Positions 5,204 to 46,747 of a stretch of 64,000 bases of DNA are shown here, piece after piece. Source of the stretch: Lachnospiraceae bacterium (GTDB taxonomy: Bacteria > Bacillota > Clostridia > Lachnospirales > Lachnospiraceae); assembly GCA_051877575.1 (NCBI GenBank), contig JBJEJA010000052.1, positions 7,061 to 71,060 of the forward strand. The letters run 5' to 3'. A model generated the notes under the pieces. The model did not search any database, was not told the origin of the DNA, and saw only the letters and a list, made by a program, of their open reading frames with translations. Position numbers and translations under genes: made by a program. Position 1 is the stretch's first letter, and the number at the start of each line of letters is the position of its first letter.

Positions 5204-5374
5204 TTATGCTTCTGAGATAGCACCTGTCGGGCACTGTCCTGCACAAGTACCGCAATCGATACATTTTTCAGGATCAATTTCAAATTTGCCGTCTCCCATG
5301 CTGATTGCGCCTACAGGACAAGCGCTTTCGCATGCACCACATGCTACACAAGCGTCACCAATACTGAATGCCAT
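5204..5374 (-). CDS. Clostridial 2[4Fe-4S] ferredoxin, 56 aa (absent from ORF track)
   Basis: Manual translation MAFSIGDACVACGACESACPVGAISMGDGKFEIDPEKCIDCGTCAGQCPTGAISEA with two CxxCxxCxxxCP motifs; AGGAGG RBS upstream. Confidence 0.97.
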   Translation of the reverse strand: MAFSIGDACVACGACESACPVGAISMGDGKFEIDPEKCIDCGTCAGQCPTGAISEA

Positions 5375-5402
5375 AATCATATCCTCCTTAAAGTTGTAAA
5401 AT

Positions 5403-5518: not shown

Positions 5519-6289
5519 TTAATTGTGATGTGTGATTCCCAGCTCGGCACGGCGTTTTCGGATGCCGTTTAAAATATATTCTTTCTTTTCGGGGATCAAT
5601 TTCTTATCCATAGGCGGAACGTCTTTTAATACGTAGTCAATTCCCAGTTCCTTGTATTTTTTCTTTGCCATATCGTGATAAGGAAGCACGTCAAGGGCTG
5701 TTAAGTTGGTAAACTGACCGATGAAATAACCCAGCTTGTACAGGGATTCTTCATCATCGGTAATACCCGGAACCACAACGTGACGGATCCACATGTTGAC
5801 TTTCTTTTCGTTCAGATAGGCAGCAAAAGCTAAAATTCCGTCATTGGGCTGGCTTGTGAGCTTTTTATGCTTTTCGGGATCGATATGCTTAATATCCAGC
5901 ATAACCAGATCGGTTAATTTCATTAACTCATCCAGTTTTTTATTATATTCGGTATTGGTCGGTTTGTATGCAATACCTGAGGAATCGATGCAGGTATGAA
6001 TGCCGTGTTCTTTGCAGAGCGTGAACAATTCCAATAGGAAATCGATCTGCATCAGGGGTTCACCGCCGGTTACGGTAATACCGCCTCCGTTTTCATAAAA
6101 AGGTCTGTTGCGTTCATATTGCTCGATAATCTCGGAGGCTTCCATTTCGGTACCGCCTGTCATGGGCCAGGTGTCGGGATTGTGGCAATATGCACATCTC
6201 ATGGGACAGCCCTGTACGAATACGACAAAGCGTGTTCCGGGACCGTCTACCGTGCCAAAACTTTCTAAAGAATGAATTCTTCCACTCAT
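5519..6289 (-). CDS. pflA: Pyruvate formate-lyase activating enzyme (radical SAM)
   Basis: ESFGTVDGPGTRFVVF, CPMRCAYCHNPDTW, TGGEPL. Confidence 0.97.
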   Translation of the reverse strand: MSGRIHSLESFGTVDGPGTRFVVFVQGCPMRCAYCHNPDTWPMTGGTEMEASEIIEQYERNRPFYENGGGITVTGGEPLMQIDFLLELFTLCKEHGIHTCIDSSGIAYKPTNTEYNKKLDELMKLTDLVMLDIKHIDPEKHKKLTSQPNDGILAFAAYLNEKKVNMWIRHVVVPGITDDEESLYKLGYFIGQFTNLTALDVLPYHDMAKKKYKELGIDYVLKDVPPMDKKLIPEKKEYILNGIRKRRAELGITHHN

Positions 6290-6364: not shown

Positions 6365-6396
6365 AAAAGCCTTCCGGAATGACCCGGAAGGCTTTT
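6365..6396 (-). terminator. Intrinsic terminator after the glycyl-radical subunit gene
   Basis: aaaagccttccgg-loop-ccggaaggctttt. Confidence 0.8.
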
Positions 6397-6415: not shown

Positions 6416-6658
6416 TTATAAAGATTCGTGGAATGTTCTGCTGATAACGTCTGCCTGCTGTTCAGGTGTTAATTTGATGAAGTTAACAGCATAACCGGAT
6501 ACACGGATTGTTAACTGAGGATATTTTTCCGGATTTTTCTGAGCATCCAGTAATGTATCTCTGTTTAATACGTTAACATTTAAGTGATGTCCGCCTTTTG
6601 TAGCATAACCATCTAATAAGTTTACTAAGTTATCAACCTGAGCTGTATTTTCTGCCAT
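6416..6658 (-). CDS. Stand-alone glycyl radical domain protein (GrcA-like; C-terminal part of a split PFL)
   Basis: HLNVNV...[16 protein letters not shown]...[10 protein letters not shown], collinear with the PFL C-terminal domain; own RBS (AGGAGG). Confidence 0.93.
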
Positions 6659-6675: not shown

Positions 6676-6879
6676 TTATTCGTTGCCGTCAAGGCCTTCG
6701 TGAAGAGTAGGAACGCTGCATGCAAAGGGATTTTTGGAGCATTCGGTACATCCCATAGTCTCCACGTTTTTAGAACCCTGTACCATTTCATCCACATCAA
6801 CATTAACATGACCGATGTTGTTTGCCATGCCGTTGTCCAGTTGTTTGATCAGGTCTTCAATCATTGCATTTTCGTCCAT
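6676..6879 (-). CDS. 67-aa acidic protein resembling the N-half of the glycyl-radical domain, with a Cys-rich tail and no RVSGY
   Basis: RBS GAAAGGTG before ATG 6879; sits tightly between pflB and the GrcA-like gene; apparent homolog at 46532-46747. Confidence 0.85.
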   Translation of the reverse strand: MDENAMIEDLIKQLDNGMANNIGHVNVDVDEMVQGSKNVETMGCTECSKNPFACSVPTLHEGLDGNE

Positions 6880-6904
6880 AACTTTCACCTTTCAATTGTG
6901 TTTA

Positions 6905-8944
6905 TTATTTGTTTAAGTCGATTTCGATGTCGCCAGCAAATACCTGGTCTTCTTTACCAAGAGCTCCGGGGATGATTGTGAAGGTATTGGAGATACCATC
7001 CTGAGCATCGTTGAACGGAAGTTTGGATACAGAAGATAAGGATGCTACTGCACCATGAGTATCGCGTCCGTGCATCGGGTTAGCACCGGGTGCAAAAGGC
7101 TGTCCTTTTCTACGTCCGTCAGGTGTGTTACCTGTTGCTTTACCATAAGTTACGTTAGAAGTAATGGTAAGAATGGATGTTGTAGGAACACCGTTTCTGT
7201 AGGTATGATGTCTTCTGATCGCTGTCATGAATTTGTGTACGATCTCCTGAGCGATGCTGTCAACACGGTCATCGTCATTACCGTATTTAGGGAAGTCACC
7301 TGTTGTCTTGAAGTCAACGATGATTCCGTCTTCGTCACGAACAACTTCAACTTTTGCATATTTGATAGCGGATAAGGAGTCAGCTACGATGGACAGACCT
7401 GCAACACCTGTTGCGAAGTAACGTTTTACATCTCTGTCATGTAAAGCCATCTGTGCTCTCTCATAGCAGTATTTATCATGCATATAGTGAATGATATTCA
7501 GAGTATTTACATATACATCTGCCTGCCACTCCAGCATATCTGTGAATTTATCCATAACGTCATCATAATCAAGTACATCACCGGTAACAGGACGATATTT
7601 AGGTCCAACCTGTTTCTTGGTAACTTCGTCGACACCACCGTTCAAAGCGTACAGTAAGCACTTAGCAACGTTAGCACGAGCTCCGAAGAACTGCATTTCT
7701 TTACCGATTACCATAGAGGATACACAGCAGGCAATACCGTAGTCATCACCGTGTGTTACTCTCATTAAGTCATCGTTCTCGTACTGAATGGAAGAAGTCT
7801 TAATGGACATCTTAGCACAGAATTTCTTCCAGCCTTCAGGTAATCTTGTGGACCAGAGAACTGTTAAGTTGGGTTCGGGAGAAGGTCCTAAGTTGTTTAA
7901 TGTATTTAAGTAACGGAAGGACATCTTTGTTACCATAGGACGTCCGTCAACACCAACACCGCCGAGGGACTCTGTAACCCATACAGGATCGCCTGCGAAG
8001 ATCTGGTTGTATTCAGGTGTACGAGCAAATTTGATGCAACGTAATTTCATGATAAAGTGATCAACGAATTCCTGAATCTGTTCTTCTGTGAAAGTACCGT
8101 TCTTTAAGTCTCTCTCAGCATAGCAGTCAAGGAATGTAGATGTACGTCCGAGGGACATCGCAGCACCGTTCTGCTCTTTTACTGCACATAAGTATCCGAA
8201 ATATGTCCACTGGATAGCTTCCTGTACGTTAGATGCAGGTTTGGAAATGTCGCATCCGTAAGAAGCAGCCATTTCTTTCATCATCTTTAATGCTGTCATC
8301 TGTTCGGAAAGTTCCTCACGAAGACGGATAACATCATCGGTCATAACACGTCCTGTGGAAGCTTTCTGCGCTTCTTTGTCTTCAATCAGTCTGTCGATAC
8401 CGTATAAAGCAACACGTCTGTAGTCGCCGATGATACGTCCGCGTCCGTAAGCATCCGGAAGACCTGTGATGATATGAGCGGAACGACAAGCTCTCATTTC
8501 GGGGTTGTAAGCATCGAAACAACCTGCATTGTGTGTTTTTCTGTGAGTGGAGAAGAACTCGGAGATTTCAGGATCTACTGTATATCCGTTATCTGTACAA
8601 GCTTTCTCTGCCATACGGATACCGCCGTAAGGCTGCATAGAACGTTTGAAAGGTTTGTCTGTCTGGAAACCTACAATTGTCTCTTTGCTCTTGTCAAGGT
8701 ATCCGGGACCATGGGAAGTGATAGTGGAAACAACTTTGGTATCCATATCAAGTACGCCGCCTGCTTCACGTTCTTTCTTCTGTAAATCAAGCACCATGTT
8801 CCATAAGTCTTTGGTGTTCTGTGTAGGACCTGCTAAGAAACTCTCGTCTCCTTCATAAGGAGTGTAGTTTCTCTGGATGAAGTCACGTACATTGACTTCT
8901 TTGTCCCATTTGCCGCCTACAAAATCTGTCCATTCTGGTCTCAT
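6905..8944 (-). CDS. pflB: Pyruvate formate-lyase catalytic subunit lacking the glycyl-radical domain
   Basis: [17 protein letters not shown], active-site [15 protein letters not shown]; ends at ...[22 protein letters not shown] without RVSGY. Confidence 0.95.
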
Positions 8945-9035: not shown

Positions 9036-9065
9036 ATTATAGGTTAAAAGAAGTAGTTACGTCAA
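9036..9065 (-). promoter_or_regulatory. Sigma-A-like promoter of the pfl operon
   Basis: Minus strand TTGACG-18 nt-TATAAT. Confidence 0.6.
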
Positions 9066-9235: not shown

Positions 9236-9427
9236 ATGGCAGAAATCACTAAGGATATGACAATCGGAGAGATTATCAAAATAAATGCAGGTGTTATCCC
9301 GGTACTGATGAACGCAGGGATGCATTGTGTAGGATGCCCTTCCGCTCAGGGAGAAACTCTGGAAGAGGCAGCCATGGTACATGGAATGGATATCGATGAT
9401 TTAATGACCAAGATCCGGGAGTTATAA
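9236..9427 (+). CDS. DUF1858-type / hybrid-cluster-associated redox disulfide protein
   Basis: [10 protein letters not shown]...[23 protein letters not shown]; strong RBS. Confidence 0.88.
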
Positions 9428-46141: not shown

Positions 46142-46539
46142 AAATCAAACCGTTATGGAAGGAAGCGGAGGCAGAACAGCCTACGCAGGATTGTTTGAAA
46201 AAAGAATTCCGGGAGGCAAAGCGCTTCGGAGAGATCAGACTGGGGACGGAGTATCTGTTTTACAGAGGTTTTGTCAGAGTGCGTTTTATTCCGCTTCGGG
46301 AGTGTGAACGGATCTATCTGAGAGTGGAATTCGGCGAATACGGAGAATTTCCTTTGCATGAGCACTATGTGATTGTAGTAACGAAGCAGGGGAAAGAGCT
46401 GAAACTGCGGATGGAGCGTCCCGATGATGCCAAAGACATTATGGCATTTCTGGAAGAGGTCTCCGGGGATCTGAAGCTTGGAAAAGAGACTGACAATCGG
46501 GATATGAGTGATGAAGGCAGGAGGACTATGCATGGATGA
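46138..46539 (+). CDS. Hypothetical protein
   Basis: Coupled to both neighbours (ATGA overlap upstream, 8-nt overlap downstream). Confidence 0.75.
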   Translation: MKIKPLWKEAEAEQPTQDCLKKEFREAKRFGEIRLGTEYLFYRGFVRVRFIPLRECERIYLRVEFGEYGEFPLHEHYVIVVTKQGKELKLRMERPDDAKDIMAFLEEVSGDLKLGKETDNRDMSDEGRRTMHG

Positions 46540-46747
46540 GGATGCAATGATCAATGAAATCCTGAAACATCTGGATGCTGAAACCGGACAAGGCGTTGTC
46601 AGGATGAGTGTACAGATGGATGACAAGGCCGAAACACCGAAACAGATTGATCACGGATGCTGTCATATGTACGGGAGACCTGCCAATGAAACGGTAGGTC
46701 TGTTGGATATGTATACGGATATCAGTCAGGGAGAAAACGACCGTTGA
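46532..46747 (+). CDS. 71-aa homolog of the pfl-operon small protein
   Basis: AGGAGG RBS before ATG 46532; MDEDAMINEILKHLD vs MDENAMIEDLIKQLD; shared KxI/V-D/E...GC segment. Confidence 0.8.
   Translation: MDEDAMINEILKHLDAETGQGVVRMSVQMDDKAETPKQIDHGCCHMYGRPANETVGLLDMYTDISQGENDR

Follow-up and report, generated by a model that had tools for sequence, protein, structure and literature searches.

We found that X, a 67-aa protein encoded between pflB and grcA3 in this Lachnospiraceae genome, is a real, widespread and unnamed third component of split pyruvate formate-lyase (PFL), and we infer its function from two halves, one resembling the docking segment of the radical subunit and the other a cysteine motif that related operons carry on PflB itself. 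Anaerobes use PFL as a main enzyme for splitting pyruvate; oxygen inactivates it by a break in the chain at the radical glycine. In 89/301 sampled family genomes, three separate genes encode the core, the radical-bearing piece and the duplicate strand, so that each part can be omitted, mutated or titrated alone. The features of the locus, numbered within the window (the whole 64,000-nucleotide stretch of DNA that was analysed), are as follows:

5519..6289, minus strand: pflA, PFL-activating radical SAM enzyme (TIGR02493, 306 bits; cut-off 232)
6365..6396, minus strand: 14-bp hairpin with a T-run, 3' of grcA3
6416..6658, minus strand: grcA3, 80-aa autonomous glycyl radical cofactor, RVSGY with Gly55 (NF038360, 158 bits; cut-off 158; PF01228)
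6676..6879, minus strand: X, 67-aa radical-less small protein (P0002), an open frame with stop
6688..6750, minus strand: X residues 44-64, C-x6-C-x-V-P-T-L-x-x-G-L-D, homologous to the PflB Cys tail of X-less split operons
6793..6861, minus strand: X residues 7-29, helix and beta10-like strand, homologous to the GrcA3 N-terminus
6886..6893, minus strand: RBS-like GAAAGGTG, 6 nt 5' of the X start codon, read from the letters
6905..8944, minus strand: pflB core, 679 aa, PFL without the glycyl-radical domain (Pfam, NCBIfam); catalytic pair C406/C407 invariant
9036..9065, minus strand: sigma-70-like promoter match TTGACG-18-TATAAT (11/12) upstream of pflB; a consensus match only, such matches totalling the shuffle mean (8 vs 8.0)

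The PflB core scores above the PFL cut-off yet spans only positions 2-665 of the 744 in the model, and the 80-aa GrcA3 spans 663-744. The core ends near E. coli K676 and is followed by a 15-aa acidic tail without Cys, which is unplaced in the monomer model (pLDDT <50 for 651-679); GrcA3 begins near 681. This core is the only PF02901 match in the genome (85% complete), and the hairpin after grcA3 is likely the end of the predicted pflB-X-grcA3 transcript. Split PFL is partly known already, through the NCBIfam GrcA3 model and through two PDB entries (38LA and 38LB, ‘Formate acetyltransferase’, 687 and 739 aa) that are nearer this PflB than E. coli PFL and have no radical-domain match. The first ends at the LGK motif, and the second continues into a roughly 54-residue acidic tail with at least two Cys; both were compared by sequence only. 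Our literature search found no paper on these entries; since they lack the radical domain, split cores appear to be under study.

Several neighbours and copies deserve mention in their own right. A 58-aa 2[4Fe-4S] ferredoxin (5204-5380, minus strand) follows pflA and could donate electrons to PflA, and a DUF1858/TIGR03980 redox-disulfide domain protein (9236-9427, plus strand) is encoded divergently upstream of pflB. The same genome holds a second, standalone grcA3 (L155, G000:C28:190213-190446; 96% identical) with no pflB within the fetched 6 kb, and twelve more fetched second copies (L156-L167), likewise without an adjacent pflB, lie in varied neighbourhoods; such copies are possibly a reserve of radical subunits.

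The X frame is a genuine gene and evolves under purifying selection. Against nine same-genus orthologues, dN/dS was ~0.06-0.12 in 8/9 comparisons, one being saturated (dN 0.03-0.25; dS 0.5-2.1), with constraint on both halves; an SD-like 4-mer lies 5' of 92/104 X-family starts, a count taken without a chance control. A homologue search returned 327 sequences, mostly from Lachnospiraceae, and those that are named are all called ‘hypothetical’; the X profile matched 189 clusters at 50% identity, among whose representatives frameshifted or truncated variants are present, and the Atlas clusters for the homologue P0003 are all unnamed. The X motifs are invariant across 89 genera-level samples, and in 100 members the near-invariant residues are D15 (99), G23 (100), H24 (99) and N26 (96) in the first half and C47 (98), C54 (97), P57 (98) and T58 (95) in the second. 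The earlier note had read a cluster C-T-E-C-x6-C in place of the RVSGY loop, and this X does carry C44-T-E-C47-x6-C54 and no RVSGY; the conservation of three cysteines, however, did not hold up, because C47 and C54 are near-invariant while C44 is conserved in only 75/100 members, so that the conserved motif is two cysteines, not three (three Cys in 75/100 members, just two in 22/100). Two members, L099 and L102, stop short of the last Cys.

Searches of X against known families and folds returned little: a Pfam scan gave no match at E up to 10, an NCBIfam scan gave no GrcA match at E up to 1 and no family, a profile search of PDB sequences gave three chance-level matches and no X-like chain, and Foldseek with the X model gave no match at E up to 0.001. 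A longer fused form of X was not found, which the search tool's own note describes as weak evidence. The structure model has a helix at 3-19 and is otherwise an extended chain without regular structure (pTM 0.53), as would be expected if X folds on a partner. RNA runs matched at most 0.18 of the sampled words, and the matches came from relatives' contigs; two of the runs each had a single contig that spans X together with neighbour genes, which is no proof of transcription. No paper on X or split PFL was found in the full-text literature (subscription journals and bioRxiv supplements lie outside this coverage), and the searched excerpts of PMC12288474 hold nothing on split PFL.

By profile comparison, the first ~30 residues of X are homologous to the helix and beta10 strand of GrcA3. 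The earlier note had been right about the frame at 6676-6879, the sequences that it quoted and the gap-free alignment to the neighbouring subunit, which pairs X L14-V29 with GrcA3 L15-V30 (6/16 identities, read from the sequences). Taken as a single pairwise match, the likeness is weak (BLASTP E=0.001); the profile-level similarity that the note had set as a test was borne out by hhalign of 50 X against 50 GrcA3 sequences (probability 97.1%, E 6e-11, 35 columns), and in an ungapped register test the true offset ranked 1/46 (score 51.6; next -6.4). Run blind against 301 class genomes, the X profile returned, after X, mostly this segment, both from standalone GrcA3 and from 740-790-aa fused PFLs, and deep X members (e.g. 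L080) are nearer GrcA3 than is the X of this genome. X residues 7-29 correspond to about 681-709 of E. coli PFL; as described in excerpts of PMC8683613, the strand homologous to this docking segment is PFL beta10, whose place is taken by the YfiD copy. The H-x-N-V of the docking strand is retained in X (H24 99/100, N26 96/100), X has D, E, S or T where GrcA3 has the invariant second Asn of HLNVN, and G, F or S where GrcA3 has the invariant Tyr.

Among the genomes searched, X is restricted to those with a split PFL. X matched in 90/301 family genomes, one of them through a distant paralogue only, which leaves 89. A radical-domain match was present in 239 genomes, of which 131 have split PFL, 104 fused PFL only and 4 are ambiguous (classes tallied by hand from open-frame lengths, leaving out 62 genomes without such a match), and X is present in 89/131 split-PFL and 0/104 fused-only genomes, in keeping with the co-occurrence that the earlier note had proposed as a test. 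The 107 fetched loci comprise 98 in the order pflB-X-grcA3, five close copies elsewhere and four distant paralogues. Four genomes have X only outside the operon; all are split PFL, with plain PflB tails in three and a shortened motif in one, and X standing away from pflB with mostly plain tails fits an action in trans. Outside the family, X was found at two loci of the class sample (L170, L182). At three loci (L147, L151, L152), pflA lies between pflB and grcA3, and at the first of these the pflB stop is followed by a short remnant that looks like the X end and has neither Cys nor a start codon.

Split operons without X usually extend the PflB tail into a motif like C-x(n)-A-C-x-I-P-N-L-x-E-G-L-D, which hhalign aligns to X residues 46-67 (95.6%, E 1e-8). 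The PflB tail is Cys-free in 53/53 complete PflB from X operons and has at least two Cys in 31/37 split operons without an adjacent X, L089, L091 and L095 being assigned to X operons in these counts. Per genome (n=91), 57 have X only, 30 the Cys tail only, three neither and one both; the two layouts are thus nearly exclusive. On a FastTree of 95 PflB cores the two states interleave, the X label needing 14 changes, 9 of them forced by starred branches, and the switch between X and Cys tail therefore occurred repeatedly; the tree is unrooted and does not tell gain from loss. The simplest route from X to Cys tail would be deletions, several times over, that remove the stop codon along with the X N-half, a direction that we infer; a single deletion would alter both traits (X presence and Cys tail) together. 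Five independent pairs show the complementarity and none is contrary (sign test p ~0.06). This Cys module, as a small protein or a PflB tail, is new, occurs in nearly all split operons examined and is a candidate for PFL protection or regulation in strict anaerobes. Split PFLs with neither X nor tail do exist (3/33 in the family sample; L179 and L186 in the class sample), and hence the module is not essential everywhere.

The distance from the conserved His to the last Cys of X is 29-31 in 79/97 members (23/40 after 60% clustering, 10/22 after 50% clustering) and the distance from His to the radical Gly is an invariant 30 in 151 GrcA3, so that the X Cys could extend to the same distance as the Gly loop. 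We considered whether the Cys half is a diverged Gly loop: the spacing fits, but the sequence does not, the two showing no likeness in register (rank 24/37), and the idea is only a lead. The acidic PflB tail (GDIEIDL) as a third beta10 copy was rejected at the sequence level (no profile similarity to X or GrcA3, probability 0.1%; unplaced in the monomer model). Similar Cys-tail split PFLs occur in several other clostridial families (L171-L178, L180, L181, L185) and may reflect transfer. An acidic insert of 22-25 residues lies at the split site in 2/4 re-examined fused PFLs (L108 of G215 and L112 of G144, the latter with Cys); both are nested among split forms on the PflB tree and are possibly re-fused.

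Compared with known systems, X shares the beta10-equivalent strand with the GrcA family (YfiD/GrcA TIGR04365, PDB 6OWR; GrcA2 NF008341; GrcA3 NF038360) and with GrcA3 also the helix before that strand, but it has neither the RVSGY loop nor the C-terminal helix, matches none of their models and carries a Cys motif related to PflB tails; moreover, YfiD repairs a cleaved full-length PFL, whereas the core here is born without a radical domain. The E. coli 696-733 recognition element, as excerpts of PMC8683613 describe it, is, like X, a radical-less beta10 duplicate beside a spare part and is needed for YfiD binding and activation; it acts in cis, arises when oxygen cleaves the chain and contains half of the Gly loop, whereas X is a separate gene spanning about 681-709 with a new Cys motif. 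The small subunits of other glycyl radical enzymes (GREs), namely BSS beta/gamma, HPAD gamma and MASS beta/gamma/delta, are likewise small Cys proteins encoded with their enzyme, and some regulate radical-domain movement; they have four-ligand HiPIP or rubredoxin folds that are not derived from the radical domain, and none is described for PFL (excerpts of PMC13450708). X is encoded in a GRE operon in 98/107 loci, as these subunits are, but it does not have the four Cys (or three Cys and a His) of the Fe-binding ones, its conserved His belonging to the inherited strand. The same excerpts of this 2026 review list HPAD, BSS and MASS as the only enzymes with small subunits and formate lyases as the only ones with spare parts, and split PFL is not mentioned in the passages searched (PMC13450708). 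X stands outside the GrcA family because it has no Gly loop, and outside the Fe-S small subunits because it has too few ligands; plausibly, it works like parts of both.

We propose, and give about an even chance, that X is a tethered placeholder in the split PFL core that protects it. The N-half would bind the helix/beta10 slot of PflB that GrcA3 uses, and would serve to tether the Cys motif, since operons whose PflB carries that motif itself do without the N-half; many lineages lack the mimic half and have the Cys half on the PflB tail, so that the Cys motif seems to be the function that is kept and the mimic an address label. X would hold its two-cysteine motif beside the empty active site, and would likely keep the core whole and ready for use whenever oxygen-fragile GrcA3 is missing or being exchanged. 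A protomer with X in the slot would have no room for GrcA3, which would put X there in the periods without GrcA3, following synthesis or oxygen cleavage; on loading, GrcA3 would displace X, which would assist rather than inhibit. The weakest step concerns the Cys motif, which may shield or redox-buffer C406/C407 or stabilise the nine-stranded barrel; barrel filling cannot be the essential role, since Cys-tail enzymes manage without a duplicate beta10. E. coli PFL without residues 696-733 has no measurable YfiD binding and 32-fold lower activation and is active once loaded (excerpts of PMC8683613); split PflB and GrcA3 resemble such truncated forms, an analogy that would explain the presence of a helper and favours a positive role of X. 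How a spare part is loaded onto a damaged core and why the duplicate strand is needed are left open in these excerpts of PMC8683613.

Carried further, and more doubtfully, the placeholder idea may extend to a cartridge system, in which a permanent core would receive a disposable radical subunit with spares, and a dummy, X, would take the same slot, place a Cys at the position of the radical Gly and cap the catalytic thiols until the swap. If true, a glycyl radical enzyme would here be controlled by swapping its subunits, and the enzyme so controlled would be the central fermentation enzyme of a large clade of gut-type Clostridia.

Rather unlikely, in our judgement, is a role as a metal or Fe-S accessory subunit or loading factor alongside GrcA3, in which X would contact GrcA3, PflA or the PflB surface and tune radical installation, much as a displaced E. 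coli 696-733 element or as BSS beta or MASS delta. Such a role would agree with the Cys-bearing small subunits of BSS, MASS and HPAD, which contact the radical domain and regulate activation (excerpts of PMC13450708), with the E. coli 696-733 segment, which acts after its exit from the slot (excerpts of PMC8683613), with the three Cys in 75/100 X and with the ferredoxin gene after pflA in the window; nevertheless, only two Cys are near-invariant and 22/100 members have just two, against four ligands in the known small subunits, and neither the X profile against PDB sequences nor Foldseek with the X model (E up to 0.001) turned up a HiPIP- or rubredoxin-like subunit.

The earlier note had seen X as an occupant of the GrcA3 slot, as placeholder, chaperone, decoy or competitive inhibitor, and the first two of these readings stand; any sensing of redox or metal would act through two invariant cysteines. 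The decoy, which would switch PFL off with its cysteines sensing redox or metal, is weakened and now seems improbable: X has indeed retained the docking segment and lost the radical loop, and its position away from the operon in four genomes would permit separate control, but its gene is mostly flanked by pflB and grcA3, and the predicted terminator follows grcA3 alone, so that X and the target it would block are likely expressed together; many lineages have the Cys half on PflB and no mimic half, and the E. coli counterpart segment promotes rescue (excerpts of PMC8683613).

Less probable still is a permanent filler of one protomer, a PflB dimer having GrcA3 on one side and X on the other with half-of-the-sites activity fixed. 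PFL dimers do show half-site radical content, and each operon has one X and one grcA3; against this stand the Cys-tail operons without any duplicate strand and the second standalone grcA3 in many genomes, which suggests turnover rather than fixed stoichiometry. That X is a functionless, decaying leftover of a grcA3 duplication, as its loss or fusion in many lineages and the frameshifted and truncated variants might hint, is effectively refuted by dN/dS of ~0.06-0.12 with both halves constrained, by motifs invariant across 89 genera-level samples and by the retention of X after relocation.

A distant paralogue of X is also encoded in the window (P0273, 71 aa, 46532-46747, plus strand; profile match 96%), directly before an 864-aa gene that, judged from its sequence, looks like a sensor histidine kinase. 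This paralogue keeps the helix, has lost the G-H-x-N strand motif and has a Cys-Cys-His motif, and the layout of paralogue and kinase-like gene recurs in L018-L020; the X family can therefore serve outside PFL.
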